From the NCBI GenBank assembly GCA_018333785.1, contig JAGXSU010000108.1, positions 15,301-79,300 of the forward strand: a DNA stretch of 64,000 nt, given 5' to 3'. The notes beneath the pieces are model-generated. The model worked only from the letters and a program-made list of their open reading frames with translations, did no database searches and had not been told where the DNA came from. The stretch comes from Methylomicrobium sp. (lineage in GTDB: Bacteria > Pseudomonadota > Gammaproteobacteria > Methylococcales > Methylomonadaceae). Positions 14,851 to 64,000 of this stretch are shown one piece after another. Both the position numbers and the translations under genes were made by a program. Positions within the stretch are counted from its first letter, which is position 1, and each line of letters opens with the position of its first letter.

Positions 14851-14879
14851 GTCATTCCGGCAATCCCTGCCGGAATGAC
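14851..14879. repeat. Solo copy of the MITE-internal hairpin module
   Basis: gtcattccggca-atccc-tgccggaatgac forms a perfect 12-bp stem. The same module occurs at 733-762, 10949-10971 and 57470-57500. Confidence 0.7.
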
Positions 14880-15027
14880 GACCTTCGGTCATGTGAAACC
14901 TGAAATCTTACAAAGTAGAGTTATCCCGAAAAATGAGTGTTTGTAGTGAACGTTGGATTGCCGTTCTTTGGAGGGTTCAAAAATGCTTGTTTGTCAAAGA
15001 ATTGTTATCCCTTCAACAGGTCAAAAA

Positions 15028-56696: not shown

Positions 56697-56716
56697 AAAT
56701 CCAGGGATGGATTTTT
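56697..56716 (+). terminator. Weak intrinsic terminator after pfp
   Basis: aaatcca-ggga-tggattt followed by tt. The stem is AT-rich. Confidence 0.35.
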
Positions 56717-56866
56717 GAGTCAATCTCAAAGTTTGTAGTGTTCAGCAACTGGCGTAGACGCTATCACTTGGTAAGTTAACGCCGAGAATATGTGAATGGC
56801 AACTGGATCGGCTGCTTTATGGCCGTTATTGTTGATGAGCAATGATTTAAAACAATGAGTAATTTT

Positions 56867-57250
56867 ATGAAAAAAATAGGTTTCTTAATTCTGACCCTGA
56901 CGTCATTGGCTGCATATGCGGATGATCCAAAAAATGACTGGCATAACACGACGTTAACTGAAGAAACGATCAAAAAGATTCAGGAAGCAAAATACCAATA
57001 CAACAAATGCGTTGTAGATGAGCTGAAAAGTCCCGCTTATGTCAAGCAGGAGGTTCGCGGAGCCACGGAAGTCATCATAAAAAAATGTGAGCCATCATTG
57101 GCCTTGATGCGTCAGGTCTATACCGAACAAAAAGTGCCCGAAGTGATTGCCGACCGGCATTTGAAGCAAATGCGCATAGAGACAACGCGCAATGTACTCA
57201 AACAAATGATGTTCGCTGATGCCATCAGGCAGTCTGGACAAAATCCTTAA
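56867..57250 (+). CDS. Small secreted hypothetical protein
   Basis: MKKIGFLILTLTSLAAYADD signal peptide, with 2 Cys in the mature part. The ORF track start is 56855. Confidence 0.5.
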   Translation: MKKIGFLILTLTSLAAYADDPKNDWHNTTLTEETIKKIQEAKYQYNKCVVDELKSPAYVKQEVRGATEVIIKKCEPSLALMRQVYTEQKVPEVIADRHLKQMRIETTRNVLKQMMFADAIRQSGQNP

Positions 57251-57358
57251 ATACTGCATGGCAGTTTTTGCTTTAATACAATGATTGCCGGGATCTTAGG
57301 CTCCATCAAACAAGTTTCCTGCAATTCGGAAGCGGAATGTACCGGTGTTATTGAATTA

Positions 57359-57521
57359 CCTGATTATAAAGATCAATCAGCTCAGTCAAAAATCGTCATC
57401 TCGGCAGGGATTGCCGAGATCCAGATGCCATGGATGGCGAGCGCCGAACACATCCTTGTGGTCTGGATTCCGGCGATCCCTGCCGGAAAGACGTTGTTGC
57501 TGAAGCATCTTTATAATCAGG
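57359..57521. mobile_element. Intact MITE (163 bp) with perfect 15-bp terminal inverted repeats and an 8-bp target-site duplication
   Basis: The left TIR is cctgattataaagat (57359-57373). The right end atctttataatcagg (57507-57521) is its exact reverse complement. Flanking direct repeats ttgaatta lie at 57351-57358 and 57522-57529. Internal hairpins are tctcggca-ggga-ttgccgaga and attccggcg-atccc-tgccggaa. Confidence 0.85.
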
Positions 57522-57791
57522 TTGAATTATTACTTTTTGGTCCTATATCGTTTGAAATGAACGGCGTATTTGGCGGCAGTGCGATAATAGTTGGTACTGC
57601 CTTCTATGGATTTCAGCGGAATGAGGCTGGATAATACATGACTCTCTGTGCCCTTTTTTGAACAAAGCGTATGCTAGACGGATACAGGTGAAAATTTAGA
57701 TCGTTTAGAGGATTACTAAAGAGATTATCCGTCGTGCTCCAGCAAACCGGTGGGATGACGTTACTTTTAATTGACTTACCCAAGAGAAATT

Positions 57792-58460
57792 ATGAATTAC
57801 TCCATTGACCTGACCCTTAAGCCTACAACTTTTGATTTGTGGCATGTTTGTTTGGCCGGCACCGTTGTTTTGTTGGGGTTGATACTGATTGTTGTTCTAT
57901 TGGCAGGACTTGTCAGTGTTGCCCGAGGTAAAAAGAAGCTGATAGTGGAAACACTAAAGCAGTCTGCTTTACTGGTGCCGCCTAAAGCACCGGAACCTGA
58001 AGTTAAAATCGTTGAGAAAATTGTTGAAGTTGAAAAAATTGTTCAAGCGCCGGCCCCAGAACCGATCGTTCTCAAAGAAGCGACACCCGATGCGGCACTG
58101 CAGCTGTTAAATCTGTTGCAAAAAGAAGCGCGTTTTATTGATTTTGTTATGGAAAACATAACCGCTTACAGCGATGCCGATATTGGGGTTGCAGCCCGTG
58201 TGGTCCATGAAGGGTGTACCAAAGTGATGGACGAGCATTTCAAGCTGGCCGTCATTCATGAAGGGCAGGAAGGGGCAACCGTTACGTTACCGAAAGGTTT
58301 CGATGCGTCGTCGATACGCCTGACCGGCAATATAGTCGGAGAAGCGCCTTTTACCGGCGTCCTGGTTCATAAAGGCTGGCAGGTCACAGACATGAATTTG
58401 CCAAAATTAACGTCGGGTCATAACGTAAAAATACTGGCACCGGCTGAGGTTGAATTATGA
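57792..58460 (+). CDS. Membrane-anchored DUF2760-like protein
   Basis: One N-terminal TM helix (LWHVCLAGTVVLLGLILIVVLLAGLVSVA) and a Pro/Glu/Val-rich linker. The C-terminal domain LLQKEARFIDFVMENITAYSDADIGVAARVVHEGC...GNIVGEAPFTGVLVHKGW resembles DUF2760. I prefer the ATG at 57792; the ORF track gives TTG at 57771. Confidence 0.7.
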   Translation: MNYSIDLTLKPTTFDLWHVCLAGTVVLLGLILIVVLLAGLVSVARGKKKLIVETLKQSALLVPPKAPEPEVKIVEKIVEVEKIVQAPAPEPIVLKEATPDAALQLLNLLQKEARFIDFVMENITAYSDADIGVAARVVHEGCTKVMDEHFKLAVIHEGQEGATVTLPKGFDASSIRLTGNIVGEAPFTGVLVHKGWQVTDMNLPKLTSGHNVKILAPAEVEL

Positions 58461-60445
58461 GTAATTTGTTTGGTCATTCCGGCTCGAATAATGGCGAGGA
58501 AGGGCACGGACAGAATACATCAGAGCCTGAGATTTCAGGCAATGCAACGGATAACACGCCTCATACCGAAACCGGAAGCAGTGATCAGCCCCTGACGGGC
58601 AATACGTCTGGCCCCCGATATTCAGTGGGAATTGATCTGGGTACCACGCATTGCGTGCTTTCCTATGTCGATTTAAGTGTATCTGATGAAGACAGTTATC
58701 ATCAGGAAGTGATGGCTATACCGCAGCTAAGCTCGCCAGGAACGGTTGAGGATTTATTGCAGCTGCCTTCGTTTTTATATCAGGCCCACCCTTTAGAATT
58801 GGCTGAAGGGGCAACTTCATTGCCGTGGACGGCAAAACCTTCTTTTTTAGTCGGTGAAATCGCCCGCAATTTAGGCAGCAAATCGCCTATTCGCCTGGTG
58901 TCCAGTGCTAAAAGCTGGCTATGTCATGCTGGTGTCGATTGTAAAGCCGCCATTCTTCCCGCCGAAGCGCCGGAAGAAGTTGAACGTGTCTCGCCTTTTC
59001 AGGCGACTGTTGCCTATCTTCAGCATATTCGCGATGCCTGGGCCAATAAACATCCCGGTGAACCGTTATCAGAACAGGATGTTACGATTACCGTGCCGGC
59101 ATCATTCGATCCGGCCGCGCGCGAATTGACAGTGGAAGCGGCTCGCTCAGTCGGACTTGAGAAAGCCATTTTACTGGAAGAACCGCAATCGGCTCTGTAC
59201 AGCTGGATTGAAAAAAGTCAGGGAGAGTGGCGTAAACAAGTCCAGATCGGCGATATCATTTTAGTGATTGATATCGGCGGCGGCACGACCGACTTGTCTT
59301 TGATTGCCGTGACGCAACAAGACGGTAATTTGGAGTTGACCCGTGTTGCGGTGGGCGATCACATCCTTTTGGGTGGTGACAACATGGATTTGGCTTTGGC
59401 TTATACCGTAAAAGCCAAGCTGGAGCAGGATGGACGGCGTTTGGAAGCGTGGCAAGTTCAAGCTTTGATGCATGGGTGCCGGGAAGCCAAGGAAAAAATC
59501 TTCAGCCAGATAGATTTGCAAACCATTCCTTTGGTCGTACCTAATCGCGGCTCTTCATTGATAGGCGGTGCGTTGCGAACTGAGTTAACCCGTGAAGAAG
59601 TCGAGAGCGTCTTGGTCGAGGGCTTTTTACCTCGTGTCTCCTCAGCAGACAGGCCCGTTGTTCGTCCCCGCAGTGGTCTTAGAACCGCCGGATTGCCTTA
59701 CGCACAAGATGCCGCGATCACACGCCACTTGGCTGCATTTTTAGCGAAACAGCTTAGCGCAACAGACGAACTCAGCGATGTGACGTTGCCGGAACATGCC
59801 ACATTTATCCATCCTTCGGCTGTTCTATTTAACGGGGGGGTATTGAAAGCCGATGCGCTGGCGGGCCGGTTGATGGAGGTTTTAAATAGCTGGCTTACTG
59901 CAGAACAAGCGCCGGAATCGCGCCTGTTGGAAGGTGCCGATCTGGATCTCGCAGTAGCACGCGGCGCCGCCTATTATGGCTTTGTCCGAAAAGGCAAGGG
60001 CGTAAGAATCAAAGGCGGTACCGCAGCTTCTTATTATGTCGGTATCGAAAGCGCGATGCCTGCCGTTCCAGGAATGCCGCCCGAAATCGAAGCCTTATGC
60101 ATTGCCCCGTTCGGCATGGAAGAAGGAACGGAAGCAGTTTTACCTGATGATGAGTTTGGTCTGGTCATTGGCGAGCCGGTTCGCTTCCGGTTTTTCAGTT
60201 CGAATAACCGTCGAGAGGATAAGGCGGGCGATCGGTTGGAGTATTGGACCGGCGACGAGCTGGATGAGTTGGACGAGATAGAAATCACCTTGCCCGAAGA
60301 AGGCCGAAAAGCCGGAGAAGTGGTGCCTGTGCATCTGACTTCAGCGGTGACCGAAGTAGGCACTTTGGAGCTTCATGCCGTTTCAAGACAGGACGGCAAA
60401 CGCTGGAAAGTCGAGTTTGAGGTCAGGGCCGGAGAAGAAAGTTAA
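58457..60445 (+). CDS. Non-canonical Hsp70-family (actin-fold) ATPase, short form
   Basis: GIDLGTTHCV (phosphate-1), ITVPASFDPAARELTVEAARSVGL..LLEEPQSA, DIGGGTTDLS (phosphate-2), GDHILLGGDNMD and LFNGGV (adenosine). A disordered ~55-aa N-terminus. ATGA overlap with the DUF2760 gene. Confidence 0.85.
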   Translation: MSNLFGHSGSNNGEEGHGQNTSEPEISGNATDNTPHTETGSSDQPLTGNTSGPRYSVGIDLGTTHCVLSYVDLSVSDEDSYHQEVMAIPQLSSPGTVEDLLQLPSFLYQAHPLELAEGATSLPWTAKPSFLVGEIARNLGSKSPIRLVSSAKSWLCHAGVDCKAAILPAEAPEEVERVSPFQATVAYLQHIRDAWANKHPGEPLSEQDVTITVPASFDPAARELTVEAARSVGLEKAILLEEPQSALYSWIEKSQGEWRKQVQIGDIILVIDIGGGTTDLSLIAVTQQDGNLELTRVAVGDHILLGGDNMDLALAYTVKAKLEQDGRRLEAWQVQALMHGCREAKEKIFSQIDLQTIPLVVPNRGSSLIGGALRTELTREEVESVLVEGFLPRVSSADRPVVRPRSGLRTAGLPYAQDAAITRHLAAFLAKQLSATDELSDVTLPEHATFIHPSAVLFNGGVLKADALAGRLMEVLNSWLTAEQAPESRLLEGADLDLAVARGAAYYGFVRKGKGVRIKGGTAASYYVGIESAMPAVPGMPPEIEALCIAPFGMEEGTEAVLPDDEFGLVIGEPVRFRFFSSNNRREDKAGDRLEYWTGDELDELDEIEITLPEEGRKAGEVVPVHLTSAVTEVGTLELHAVSRQDGKRWKVEFEVRAGEES

Positions 60446-60545
60446 TTAAAAAAAGCTTACCAATGCAAGGATGCATGCCAAAATTTCGCTAATCCGGTCG
60501 TCTGCACCGTTTTATAACTTCCTTGCCCTGATTATATAGTTCATC

Positions 60546-63299
60546 GTGCAAACACTCAATCCCCGTTATCTTGTTGGCATAGACCTTGGCACTACGCATA
60601 CTGTCGTTGCTTATACTCCTGCTGATCAGTCCGGCGCTGAGATAAAAATATTCCTCATCGAGCAGTTGGTGGCGCCCGGTGAAGTCGCTGCGCGTCCTTT
60701 GCTGCCTTCAGTTCGGTATCATCCGGCGGAAGGCGAGCTTTCCGATGCGGATCTCGCGTTTTTGCCGACTCAAGACAAATCTGTCATGGGCGAAGCGGCC
60801 CGGGTTTTGGGCGCTAAAACGCAAGGTCGGTTCGTTACCAGTGCTAAAAGCTGGTTGTCCCACCCATCTGTGGATCATACGGCCGATATTCTGCCTTGGG
60901 GTAGCAGTGAAGACGTGGTCAAAGTGTCACCCTTGGCCGCCAGTGCAGGATATCTGGATCATATTCGAATGGTCTGGCGACATCAATTTCCGAACGCTCC
61001 GCTTGAAGAACAGGACATTGTGATTACGGTTCCGGCGTCATTTGATGAAGGCGCCAGGTCATTAACCGTGGAAGCGGCTAAAATCGCCGGGCTTGACCGC
61101 GTAAAATTGCTGGAAGAACCGCAAGCAGTGTGTTACGACTGGTTGCAACGTCATGCCGGCAGTATCAATCAGCAATTGGCCGATGTGCACTTATTGCTGG
61201 TTTGCGATGTGGGCGGCGGAACCACCGATTTAACACTGATTAAAGTTGAGCCGGGAGAACCGGAGCCCAAATTGACGCGTATCGGCGTCGGCGATCATTT
61301 GATGCTGGGCGGGGATAATATTGATTTGGCCTTAGCGCATCTGGCTGAACAACGCCTTGTTTCAGATGCCAAGCGCTTGTCAGCGGCTGATCTGTCTCAG
61401 TTGATCGAACAATGCCGCATTGTTAAAGAAAAATTATTGGCGCAAGATGCGCCCGAACAGCTTTCCGTTACCTTGCTGGGTGGGGGTTCACGCTTGATTG
61501 GCAGTGCCCGGTCGGTAGTGCTGACCCGAGATGAGGTCAGGTCGATCGCGTTGGACGGCTTTTTCCCGTTATCGCAATTAAACGAGTTGCCTGATCGCAA
61601 ACGCAGCGGCGTGGTTGAATTCGGATTGCCTTATGCGGCGGAACCGGCAATCAGTAAACATATTGCCGCGTTTTTGAAGTTGCACAGTCAGGCTGCGCTT
61701 GATGCCATGCAAGGCGAGGGCAAAGTTCCCGATGCATTGCTGCTTAATGGCGGAGTGTTCAGAAGTGAGCCAATTACGCGCCGTGTGCAGGACTTGATAA
61801 CCGCCTGGCGAGGCAAGGCGCCCAAATTGCTGGATAACCGTCATCCGGAACTGGCCGTGGCGATAGGGGCCGTCAGCTATGCTTTGGCCCGGCGTAACAA
61901 ACAGGTACGCATCGGTGGTGGGGCCGCGCGCAGTTATTTCCTGGCGGTGGATACCGATGGTGATTGTCAGCAAGGCGTTTGCATTCTTCCGCGCGGCTGC
62001 GAGGAAGGGCATGAAATTGTATTGCAAGACCGGCAGTTTGCCTTGCGTTTGGGGCAGCCCGTGCGATTTCATCTGGTTTCTACAACCGGAGACGCTGAGT
62101 TCAAACCGGGTGAAATTGCCACGATAACCGATGACCGGTTTCAAACTTTACCCCCTTTGGCCGTGGCTTTGGCAGCTACTGAGCACTCCTCTTCAGCGCA
62201 GGAGATTGTAAAGTTAGCCGTCACGCTGACAGAAATCGGTACATTGAAAATTCAGTGCGTATCGGTTAAAGATCCCCATCAACGCTGGGATGTCGAATAC
62301 CAAATCAGGCGAAAAAACAACCTGAGTACGGCAGATCAAGCCATTTTGCCGCCACAGTTCAATAAAGCCATTGAATTGGTCCAGACTGTTTTCGGTTCAC
62401 GGTCCAAAGATGTCAATCCAAAAGCGGTCAAAAGTCTGCGCGCGGATCTTGAAAAATTACTGGGTTCTGCACGCAGCGAATGGGAAACTCCCTTGCTGAG
62501 AGGCTTGTTTGCTGCGTTGCTTGACGGCATGAAATACCGCAAACGATCGGAAAACCACGAGCGGGTCTGGTTGAGCCTGACCGGTTATTGTCTTCGTCCG
62601 GGCTTGGGGTATCCTCTGGATGACTGGCGTGTTGAGCAGTTATGGAAAATTTATGATCAAGGTATTCAATTTGTCAATGAAACGCAGAACTGGAGCGAAT
62701 GGTGGACGTTGTGGCGGCGGGTTGCCGGTGGTTTGAATGTTGCTGCACAGGAAAGGATCAGTGACGATATCGGCAAATTTTTAAATCCGGCTTCGGCCCG
62801 GCAGCCGGCAGTTGCCAGGCAAATGAAAACACGGAGTTATGACGATATGGTCAGACTGGCTGCCGTGCTGGAAAAGTTGCCGGTGCCCAAGAAAATTCAG
62901 TTAGGCGAGTGGTTGTTAAATCGCTTGAGTAAACCCGGAGAGTCGGAGCAAAGCTGGTGGGCGTTAGGCCGTATCGGTGCCCGCATGCCTTTTTACGGCA
63001 GCAGTCATGCCATCATTGCTCCTAAACTGGCCTCAGAATGGCTGCAGCAAGTGATGCAGGCTGATTGGAAGAAAATACCTCAGGCCGGATTTGCGGCAAC
63101 GTTAATTGCGCGTATGAGCGGCGATCGCACCCGCGATATCGACGAAAAGCTCAGGATAGACATTATCGAGCAATTAAAACAAGCCAAAGCACCTGCGTCC
63201 TGGATAGAGATGGTCGAAACGCACAAGCAACTGGATGAAAAAGAAGAAAAGCAAATCTTCGGCGAAGCCTTGCCGCCCGGTTTAAAACTGATTCAGTAG
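60546..63299 (+). CDS. Non-canonical Hsp70-family ATPase, long form with a ~330-aa extra helical C-terminal domain
   Basis: A paralogue of the preceding gene, sharing GIDLGTTHTV, SAKSWLSH, ITVPASFDEGARSLTVEAAKIAGL, DVGGGTTDLT, GDHLMLGGDNID and LLNGGV. It adds a Trp-rich C-terminal region (WSEWWTLWRR...). GTG start. Confidence 0.85.
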   Translation: MQTLNPRYLVGIDLGTTHTVVAYTPADQSGAEIKIFLIEQLVAPGEVAARPLLPSVRYHPAEGELSDADLAFLPTQDKSVMGEAARVLGAKTQGRFVTSAKSWLSHPSVDHTADILPWGSSEDVVKVSPLAASAGYLDHIRMVWRHQFPNAPLEEQDIVITVPASFDEGARSLTVEAAKIAGLDRVKLLEEPQAVCYDWLQRHAGSINQQLADVHLLLVCDVGGGTTDLTLIKVEPGEPEPKLTRIGVGDHLMLGGDNIDLALAHLAEQRLVSDAKRLSAADLSQLIEQCRIVKEKLLAQDAPEQLSVTLLGGGSRLIGSARSVVLTRDEVRSIALDGFFPLSQLNELPDRKRSGVVEFGLPYAAEPAISKHIAAFLKLHSQAALDAMQGEGKVPDALLLNGGVFRSEPITRRVQDLITAWRGKAPKLLDNRHPELAVAIGAVSYALARRNKQVRIGGGAARSYFLAVDTDGDCQQGVCILPRGCEEGHEIVLQDRQFALRLGQPVRFHLVSTTGDAEFKPGEIATITDDRFQTLPPLAVALAATEHSSSAQEIVKLAVTLTEIGTLKIQCVSVKDPHQRWDVEYQIRRKNNLSTADQAILPPQFNKAIELVQTVFGSRSKDVNPKAVKSLRADLEKLLGSARSEWETPLLRGLFAALLDGMKYRKRSENHERVWLSLTGYCLRPGLGYPLDDWRVEQLWKIYDQGIQFVNETQNWSEWWTLWRRVAGGLNVAAQERISDDIGKFLNPASARQPAVARQMKTRSYDDMVRLAAVLEKLPVPKKIQLGEWLLNRLSKPGESEQSWWALGRIGARMPFYGSSHAIIAPKLASEWLQQVMQADWKKIPQAGFAATLIARMSGDRTRDIDEKLRIDIIEQLKQAKAPASWIEMVETHKQLDEKEEKQIFGEALPPGLKLIQ

Positions 63300-63320
63300 T
63301 CATTGCCCTGAAAGCGAGAG

Positions 63321-63425
63321 GTAGGGTGGTTTCGCATAACGAAGTGAAGCAAACCGCCATGAGGGAGGGCAATCCCCAAATCAAGCCGTCATGGTGTATT
63401 GCCTATCGGCGAATACACCTTACCT
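63321..63425. repeat. Two REP-type hairpins with GTAGG/GTAAGG heads
   Basis: gtagggtggtttcgc...gcaaaccgcc, and ggtgtattgcc-tatc-ggcgaatacacc followed by ttacc. Confidence 0.55.
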
Positions 63426-63433
63426 TCTGCGCC

Positions 63434-63664
63434 TTATGCTTTTGTTATGCTTTTACCGTTTAATTGATTTGAAATTTCAATATCTTTTTTAAGCAGTGTA
63501 TTGATCACTTGATTGAGCGAAAAACCGTGTCCCTTGGCTTTGAGCCTGTCCATAAAAAACTCTTTGACCTCTTTATCAAGGTAAATTGGTATATCAAGTT
63601 CCTCGATTGGCCTATAGAATTTACCTTGTTCCGCACCACTAAAATCATATTCATCTTTCATCAT
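63434..63664 (-). CDS. Small ribbon-helix-helix (CopG/BrnA-like) antitoxin-like protein
   Basis: MMKDEYDFSGAEQGKFYRP...IPIYLDKEVKEFFMDRLKAKG..SLNQVINTLLKKDIE fits a beta-strand + two-helix RHH pattern. GAAGG lies 8 nt upstream of the ATG. No partner toxin ORF is adjacent. Confidence 0.45.
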   Translation of the reverse strand: MMKDEYDFSGAEQGKFYRPIEELDIPIYLDKEVKEFFMDRLKAKGHGFSLNQVINTLLKKDIEISNQLNGKSITKA

Positions 63665-63692
63665 GGATGCCTTCTTTGATATTCCTTGTCCG

Positions 63693-63762
63693 GTAGGATG
63701 CGGTGAGGAACGAACAGTATCAATCGCGAACGATGCGGTTCACGATGTTTACCGCATCCTAC
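63693..63762. repeat. Inverted pair of GTAGGATGCGGT REP heads
   Basis: gtaggatgcggt at 63693-63704 and its exact reverse complement accgcatcctac at 63751-63762. Confidence 0.7.
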
Positions 63763-63914
63763 GGGCTGGTACATAGAGCCGCATAATTTTGAACAGGACA
63801 AGATTAACATTGCCTCGGAGTAGGTTTGGTAGCTTTTGCAAAAAGAAAGACTTGACCCCTCTGCCCTTTTATTGGTCGTTCGAGAGACATATTTTTTGTA
63901 AAATATAGGTTGAG

Positions 63915-64000
63915 TTATGATTTGACTTTTAAACTGTCTAACTTTTTTTTAAGCTTTTCCTCTGTAATCTTTTCATCATATCGAAACTCAATTAGCTTAT
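63915..64000 (-). CDS. 3' end of an unidentified ORF running in from beyond the window end
   Basis: The minus-strand frame is open from 64000 and reads ...KLIEFRYDEKITEEKLKKKLDSLKVKS*. It is too short to identify. Confidence 0.25.
   Translation of the reverse strand, partial: KLIEFRYDEKITEEKLKKKLDSLKVKS

Follow-up and report, generated by a model that had tools for sequence, protein, structure and literature searches.

The action of Hsp70 chaperones generally depends on J-domain proteins and is regulated by nucleotide-exchange factors. Specialised members include HscC of Escherichia coli, which has a shortened lid and an inner-membrane J-domain partner, DjlC (also DjlB/YbeS), and yeast Ssz1, which is a regulatory Hsp70. 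In organelles, Hsp70s are tethered to membranes by Tim44/Pam18 (mitochondrial Hsp70, mtHsp70) and by Sec63 (BiP). In Myxococcus xanthus, the stk locus encodes the Hsp70-like StkA, the SCP2-like StkB and the PhaE-like StkC, and StkA controls exopolysaccharide (PMC4319316). Besides HscA and, less so, HscC, the bacterial DnaK derivatives were described in a 2026 review as unexplored "dark matter", and some of them were speculated to be Hsp110-like partners (PMC13580251). An entry point into these poorly studied "DnaK derivatives" is provided by a module of three genes, here called A, B and C, in a stretch of 64,000 nucleotides from Methylomicrobium sp. (assembly GCA_018333785.1, contig JAGXSU010000108.1, positions 15,301 to 79,300), referred to below as the window. 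Gene A encodes a membrane protein with a DUF2760 domain, gene B an Hsp70-like ATPase and gene C a longer paralogue of B.

The individual proteins are already catalogued, under the annotations "Hsp70 family protein" and "DUF2760 domain-containing protein". No earlier report was found of the conserved triad, of its loss of canonical Hsp70 control elements or of any function. An earlier note on the window, made from the sequence without database searches, knew of no assigned function for the module, and the literature agrees: we found no paper mentioning DUF2760, DUF3731, PF10816 or PF12531, the term 'DnaK-related protein' occurs there in annotation-level mentions only, and the review cited above counts bacterial DnaK derivatives as unexplored. 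The reading that we favour, with a probability of roughly 0.45, is that of a dedicated membrane-docked Hsp70-type remodelling machine in which A would serve as adaptor and C would be a partner of the Hsp110 type.

Conservation of the module as a unit

The DUF2760 family comprises 1,794 clusters at 50% identity and is represented in at least 592 GTDB species genomes. Carriers of the module are Proteobacteria, with one cluster member annotated from a Bacteroidota metagenome-assembled genome (MAG), and they include Burkholderia cenocepacia, B. multivorans and methanotrophs used in biotechnology. Gene order was compared in two samples. The first contained 80 genome loci, mostly from Methylococcales together with a dozen other Beta- and Gammaproteobacterial lineages, while the second, independent of the first, contained 80 metagenome loci of a distant DUF2760 clade.

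B lies directly after A in every sufficiently long locus of the genome sample. Further, the overlap between the two genes measures exactly 4 nt in 63 of 70 loci, a conserved arrangement that reads as a signature of translational coupling. The window carries the same overlap, the stop codon of A (TGA) sharing the sequence ATGA with the start codon of B. The distance between B and C is more variable, ranging from -349 to +868 nt across loci. A gene C with a DUF3731 domain follows B in most of the Beta- and Gammaproteobacterial lineages of the genome sample, including Methylococcus, Methylotuvimicrobium, some Methylobacter, Oxalobacteraceae, Comamonas, Thauera, Competibacter, Photobacterium, Psychromonas and others. 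In the distant clade, B was present in all loci with at least 400 nt downstream of A, and C with DUF3731 in 19/19 loci having at least 5.2 kb downstream. The earlier note had treated the three genes as one unit, and the adjacency of A and B in both samples, together with the presence of C in all of the long distant-clade loci, bears this out.

When all open reading frames (ORFs) of the 80 genome loci were clustered against one another, no genes other than A and B/C proved common to the 13 lineage groups compared. Candidates for a fourth conserved gene were rejected, as the extra ORF clusters were shadow ORFs within the Hsp70 genes and Pfam scans of the flanks gave none.

C is dispensable, or encoded elsewhere, in some lineages, because it is missing next to A and B there. 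In the many Methylomonas, Methylobacter and Crenothrix genomes that lack it there, synteny breaks down after B (L009 12720-20645; L019 12483-20648; also L003-L041), and the full triad is retained in other Methylobacter genomes (L081, L035). In three Methylococcales loci (L008, L027, L033), an ORF of 1,300 aa on the same strand replaces C directly after B; a tblastn comparison found no similarity between this ORF and C.

Domain structure of the three proteins

Protein A had been described in the earlier note as a single-pass membrane protein with a Pro/Glu-rich linker and a DUF2760-like domain, with PF10816 as the profile to be searched. The search gave a strong DUF2760 match (E 3.9e-53; 179 bits against a gathering cut-off of 25) that covers residues 99-221 (nt 58086-58454) and positions 2-124 of the 124 in the model. 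The other parts of the description hold as well. A transmembrane (TM) helix is found at residues 17-43 (nt 57840-57920), with a Kyte-Doolittle 19-residue mean of 3.2, and a linker rich in Pro, Glu, Lys and Val extends over about residues 50-98. The TM helix is followed by RGKKK, which under the positive-inside rule would place the DUF2760 domain in the cytoplasm.

In an AlphaFold2 (AF2) model of protein A based on a 42-sequence alignment, the N-terminal helix spans residues 7-59, the linker has a predicted local distance difference test (pLDDT) score of 57-79, and the DUF2760 domain is compact, with three helices, four strands and a pLDDT >90 for residues 100-215. Foldseek gave no match to this model with E <0.1 in PDB or BFVD. 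The top weak PDB fold matches, to dynein-complex chains at a probability of 0.3-0.44, were discarded as not credible, and comparison of the protein A sequence with PDB chains likewise gave no match. Twelve residues (Q110, R114, D117, R136, H139, G179, P186, G189, H193, G195, W196 and P204) are invariant across 42 diverse homologues of A. Also, the end of the protein is conserved: protein A terminates in ...APAEVEL, the family C-terminus is nearly always ...AEVEL, and the pattern E-[VIL]-E-[LIVM] falls inside the last six residues in 126 of 149 DUF2760 cluster representatives. Of the 62 testable representatives, 34 have a classical TM segment, and the rest carry a conserved amphipathic motif, FFxRLxLAFxxFFRVLFD.... 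With either a TM segment or this motif at the N-terminus, membrane association across the DUF2760 family is plausible.

Proteins B and C are 41% identical over about 610 aa. PF00012, the second profile named in the earlier note, matched both (B, E 1.2e-17; C, E 4e-16), in the nucleotide-binding domain only, with matches ending near position 300 of the 599 in the model. The best NCBIfam scores were 72 bits for B and 91 bits for C, compared with cut-offs of 620-1019 for DnaK and HscA, and the HscC model of NCBIfam matched neither protein. On these scores both B and C fall outside DnaK, HscA and HscC, and the possibility of ordinary HscA/HscC orthologues, raised at the outset, falls away. The best sequence and fold matches of both proteins are nonetheless Hsp70s. 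Matches to actin-like families stay low, with PF06723 (MreB) scores of 25.1 bits for B and 20.9 bits for C where 27 is the cut-off, matches to the MreB and BeeR models of NCBIfam that stay far below their cut-offs, and a sub-threshold match to EutJ.

The nucleotide-binding domain covers about residues 56-505 of B, followed by the Gly-rich linker VRIKGGT, and residues 1-452 of C, followed by the linker VRIGGG. The motifs that had been listed for the two proteins were all located (GIDLGTTH, D(I/V)GGGTTDL, (F/L)NGGV, PVRF(R/H) and E(V/I)GTL...), with one correction: the gap in GD..LGGDN.D had been given as two residues and is in fact three (GD...LGGDN.D). Ahead of GIDLGTTH, residues 1-55 of B (nt 58457-58621) form a low-complexity extension rich in Gly, Ser, Thr, Asn and Glu. 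Judging from tblastn alignments, which beyond the closest relatives begin at about residue 48-54, this extension is lineage-specific.

Conservation within the nucleotide-binding domain was assessed by aligning 72 B and 36 C orthologues with E. coli DnaK. The DnaK positions D8, K70, E171, D194, T199 and D201 and the glycine loops are invariant in all of these sequences. In place of the DnaK interdomain linker VLLLD, all 72 B orthologues have I(K/R)GGT and most of the 36 C orthologues have IGGG(S/A). R167, a J-domain contact, is lost in B (I/T/V/L) and is R in 25/36 C. Further, N170 is replaced by E in both groups, and T173 by Q in B and in 32/36 C. The invariant catalytic residues and the changed linker suggest that B and C are probably active ATPases with non-canonical coupling.

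After the linker, both proteins contain an all-beta domain of about 135 residues. At the profile level this domain matches nothing in PDB or Pfam, nor the DnaK substrate-binding domain, and hhalign put the probability of its similarity to the last of these at 0.5%. However, the segment YYVGIES of B lies at exactly the same spacing as LSLGIET, the first strand of the DnaK substrate-binding domain, and Foldseek aligned the C model with full-length Hsp70s, its best matches, and with lid-less ones over 600-750 columns with E about 1e-18. Because of this spacing and these long alignments, we regard the beta domain, with moderate confidence, as a degenerate substrate-binding beta domain and not as a replacement. 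The helical lid is absent: B stops after the beta domain, and C has an unrelated 250-aa DUF3731 instead. The earlier note had held that a beta-rich segment replaces both the substrate-binding domain and the lid. The loss of the lid stands, whereas the substrate-binding domain probably persists as a very divergent remnant.

The DUF3731 of C (PF12531, 'DNA-K related protein') occupies residues 668-915 (nt 62547-63290), with E 6.2e-109 and 364 bits against a cut-off of 25, and matches the model in full (1-248 of 248). In the AF2 model this region is all-alpha, with helices from 605 to 915 and a pLDDT around 90, and the C-terminal domain holds 13 Trp in 257 residues. It is therefore the same domain that had been recognised beforehand as a Trp-rich helical extension of the long form. 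No relative of DUF3731 was found among PDB sequences.

Neighbourhood of the module

The coordinates of the module and of the features around it are collected in Table 1. The 4-nt overlap, the 100-nt gap between B and C and the lengths of the two ATPase ORFs are as first described. For gene A, a TTG at 57771 would be an alternative start giving 229 aa, but the ATG at 57792 is most likely the start because the resulting protein has the same length as a 98%-identical homologue. Protein A is 99% identical to that of a Methylicorpusculum sp. MAG locus, and protein B is 98% identical to an M. oleiharenae protein, so that the window belongs to a methanotroph of the genus Methylicorpusculum. The spacer between B and C contains a weak sigma-70-like match (60511-60540), a kind of match that the region holds no more often than expected by chance.

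Table 1. Positions in the window of the three genes, their beta domains and adjacent features.
Feature	Position (nt)	Strand	Description	Remarks
Gene A	57792-58460	+	222-aa bitopic membrane protein, DUF2760	ORF from ATG
Gene B	58457-60445	+	662-aa Hsp70-like ATPase	
B all-beta C-terminal domain	60014-60436		About residues 520-660	Protein ends directly after
B-C spacer	60446-60545		100 nt	
Gene C	60546-63299	+	917-aa paralogue of B	
C beta domain	61908-62315		Residues 455-590	AF2 strands 464-583
Upstream neighbour	56855-57250	+	131-aa protein, signal-peptide-like N-terminus	No Pfam/NCBIfam family
ORF spanning MITE-like element	57281-57634		117 aa	No Pfam/NCBIfam family match; probably spurious
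Palindromic MITE-like element	57356-57522		Nested inverted repeats	Between small upstream gene and gene A
Hairpin 3' of module	63690-63765		15-nt arms, 93% complementary, 46-nt loop	

The gene for the 131-aa upstream protein lies directly 5' of gene A in 50 Methylococcales loci and is not found in the non-Methylococcales loci; it is probably a lineage-specific neighbour and not part of the core module. A short periplasmic N-tail of protein A is also kept in Methylococcales, and a periplasmic contact between this tail and the secreted 131-aa protein is conceivable.

The module had been described as bracketed by a miniature inverted-repeat transposable element (MITE) on one side and by repetitive extragenic palindromic (REP) hairpins on the other. 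The MITE part of this claim is upheld, since the palindromic element (~165 bp) has a second copy, 93% identical, at 616-766 of the window, in addition to a partial match at 14854-14880. The hairpin on the 3' side exists, but its arms have no other occurrence within the window, so that its status as a REP element is unsupported by repetition there. A 76-aa ORF on the minus strand (63434-63664) lies just 3' of the module and has no Pfam or NCBIfam match. No Rfam family was found in 56700-64000.

The genes around the module in the window are of housekeeping character (obg, proB, rpsT, murJ, an HDOD protein and phosphofructokinase). In relatives the flanks are syntenic within lineages and orders, unrelated between lineages and again mostly housekeeping, with ribosomal, cox, leuS, lpxI, greA and mutS genes. 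Among 150 flank proteins from 22 diverse loci, 230 Pfam families were detected, none of them in >4 members. An HPD tripeptide occurs in none of A, B or C, and DnaJ or GrpE domains are found neither among the listed neighbours in the window and related loci nor among the 25 most frequent flank families. The earlier remark that no J-protein or GrpE gene is adjacent thus extends from the window to the listed neighbours in related loci. The module may use a housekeeping DnaJ or GrpE encoded elsewhere. Translocon genes are likewise missing from the flank families.

Some genes downstream of C were recorded at individual loci. In Herbaspirillum sp., an Hsp20/alpha-crystallin small heat-shock gene lies directly 3' of C on the same strand (one locus; L048 15220-15849). 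In two metagenome loci, C is followed on the same strand by a gene for a protein of ~960 aa with cyclic-nucleotide-binding and rhodanese domains (L117 8103-10994; L127 8296-11172), and in another locus (L072) by a Ser/Thr kinase with WD40 repeats.

Proposed mechanism, alternatives and comparison with known systems

A membrane-docked remodelling machine fits best because of the coupling of A and B, the intact but rewired ATPase paralogues, the membrane anchor, the absence of a linked J-protein or exchange factor, and the stable genomic context. For its topology, the A-B complex, the pairing of B with C, the Hsp110-like function of C and the kind of client, we infer the following arrangement. 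The module would act at the cytoplasmic face of the inner membrane, with no sign of canonical control of the DnaJ/GrpE type. Protein A, anchored by its N-terminal helix, would be both a tether and an adaptor or co-chaperone for B, and translational coupling would yield A and B in fixed proportion. B and C would be active ATPases that have retained the nucleotide-binding domain of Hsp70 and, probably, a beta-sandwich substrate-binding domain in degenerate form. Their allostery would differ from that of DnaK because the hydrophobic interdomain linker and the canonical lid are lost. C most likely pairs with B through contacts of the nucleotide-binding domains, as Hsp110 does with Hsp70, and may act as a nucleotide-exchange or co-remodelling partner, with DUF3731 as an extra surface for binding clients or partners. 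The task would not be general folding; instead, ATP would power the remodelling, extraction or assembly of a single client, or of a few, associated with the membrane.

Several observations weigh against this arrangement. C lies >8 kb from B or is absent in many Methylomonas, Methylobacter and Crenothrix genomes, and one distant locus and a Thiodictyon plasmid likewise have A and B without an adjacent C. No more than about half of the testable DUF2760 proteins contain a classical TM segment, and the DUF2760 model matches no known co-chaperone fold. In addition, the beta domain is without profile similarity, and the Foldseek score of C possibly derives from the nucleotide-binding domain alone.

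Another explanation, which we consider unlikely, is a regulatory or signalling Hsp70 that controls one regulator or envelope process, with A as membrane sensor or regulated target. In Vibrio cholerae, the operon VC1373-1375 contains two genes annotated "DnaK-related protein" and was recovered in a screen for in-biofilm-repressed genes (PMC9201469), and HapR, a regulator of quorum sensing, was reported to bind and activate the promoter of VC1375 both in vivo and in vitro (PMC10328515). Both results would speak for regulation if they concern the same system. VC1373-1375 is likely the orthologous triad because Photobacterium has the triad; however, the link to V. cholerae is by annotation names only. 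The flanks in Photobacterium were uninformative for synteny with VC1373-1375, and no position was found for a peptide that has been described from a 'DnaK-related protein' of P. angustum. Signalling families (cNMP-binding, GGDEF, protein kinase and MCP) are the most frequent ones in the flanks, but each is found in 2-4 of the 150 proteins, so that the counts are low as well as heterogeneous. The Methylococcales, with their conserved periplasmic A tail and a small secreted protein encoded just upstream, also fit this explanation. A regulatory Hsp70 has a bacterial precedent in StkA, but the architecture of its locus, with one Hsp70 and SCP2-like and PhaE-like proteins, differs and rules out the stk operon as a match for the triad (PMC4319316). 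Moreover, regulation overlaps with remodelling and does not exclude it.

It is distinctly improbable that the module is an anti-phage or conflict system in which B and C would sense or remodel some component of a phage, with A serving as effector or anchor. The sole defence-like neighbourhood seen is on plasmid pTs485 of Thiodictyon syntrophicum (L085 1-17745), where A and B, without C, are flanked on one side by DUF3780, DUF1156 and PLD-like genes (annotated anti-phage-associated), a VapC toxin and a Uma2 endonuclease, and on the other by a TIR-domain protein. A HipA/HipB pair follows A and B in one distant locus. Weak matches to the candidate-defence model PDC-M61B of PADLOC-DB v2 were obtained for B (E 2.7e-6) and C (E 7.4e-5), but these cover just ~95 residues of the nucleotide-binding domain, and A is without any PADLOC match. 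The synteny of the flanks within orders and their housekeeping character also argue against defence, and the defence-model matches among the 150 flank proteins are few and involve generic domains such as kinases. Relatives were found neither in 50,697 phage records nor in IMG/VR or BFVD. Of 72,556 plasmid records, 11 carry the module, and these are mostly megareplicons of Burkholderia and Caballeronia; on a Bradyrhizobium conjugative plasmid, a gene for a MarR-family regulator is followed by the full triad. Because phage relatives are missing, plasmid copies are rare and the defence matches in the flanks are few and generic, the module behaves as a vertically inherited chromosomal operon and not as defence-island cargo. 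The earlier note had left stress handling, envelope or secretion quality control and conflict or defence all open as roles; the phage, plasmid, PADLOC and flank data now make defence the least supported of them.

Very improbable, finally, is an actin-like cytomotive or scaffold function, in which B and/or C would polymerise or form a membrane scaffold through A by analogy with PilM-PilN or FtsA: the two proteins do belong to the actin/Hsp70 superfamily with sub-threshold matches to MreB, BeeR and EutJ, and A has a conserved terminal peptide, which recalls the binding of PilM to a short conserved peptide of the bitopic protein PilN, but the best sequence and fold matches are Hsp70s and not MreB, FtsA or PilM, the Pfam scores for MreB miss the gathering threshold, the Hsp70-specific catalytic residues K70 and E171 are invariant, and the beta domain sits at the position of a substrate-binding domain.

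Returning to the membrane-docked remodelling machine, a bolder and rather doubtful form of it can be stated. DUF2760 would be a new class of Hsp70 co-chaperone, with a fold not seen before, that replaces the J-protein; its globular domain, its conserved ...AEVEL tail or both would dock an Hsp70-like ATPase to the inner membrane. B and C would be an independently evolved heterodimer of the Hsp70-Hsp110 kind, and together the three would form a self-sufficient, J- and GrpE-independent motor for the remodelling or extraction of membrane proteins in hundreds of bacterial species. If the module works as proposed, it would represent a second way of harnessing the Hsp70 motor, would give a function to two DUFs and would offer a tractable bacterial analogue of Hsp70-Hsp110 cooperation. 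Genetics is feasible because the carriers include Burkholderia, methanotrophs and probably Vibrio cholerae.

Among the known systems, HscC-DjlC resembles the module in combining a specialised, non-housekeeping Hsp70 with a dedicated inner-membrane partner encoded nearby. However, the partner here, protein A, has no J-domain or HPD and its fold is unmatched; there are two paralogous ATPases, the hydrophobic linker is lost, and the scores of B and C are not those of an HscC, HscA or DnaK. As with Tim44/Pam18 and Sec63, a membrane protein would place a soluble Hsp70 ATPase near membrane-associated or translocating clients, whereas DUF2760 resembles neither Tim44 nor J-domains in sequence or fold and translocon genes are not linked. 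The stk operon likewise combines a non-heat-shock Hsp70 in a regulatory role with small non-J proteins, but is without DUF2760, a second Hsp70 or DUF3731 (PMC4319316). The Hsp70-Hsp110 pair (Ssa1-Sse1) differs in that DUF3731 is unrelated in sequence to the Hsp110 C-terminus and in that the module has a membrane anchor and is bacterial and of independent origin. The two systems nevertheless share a pair of paralogous ATPases of which one is longer at its C-terminal end and would act on the shorter through the nucleotide-binding domains, an analogy that has been suggested for bacterial DnaK derivatives in general (PMC13580251).

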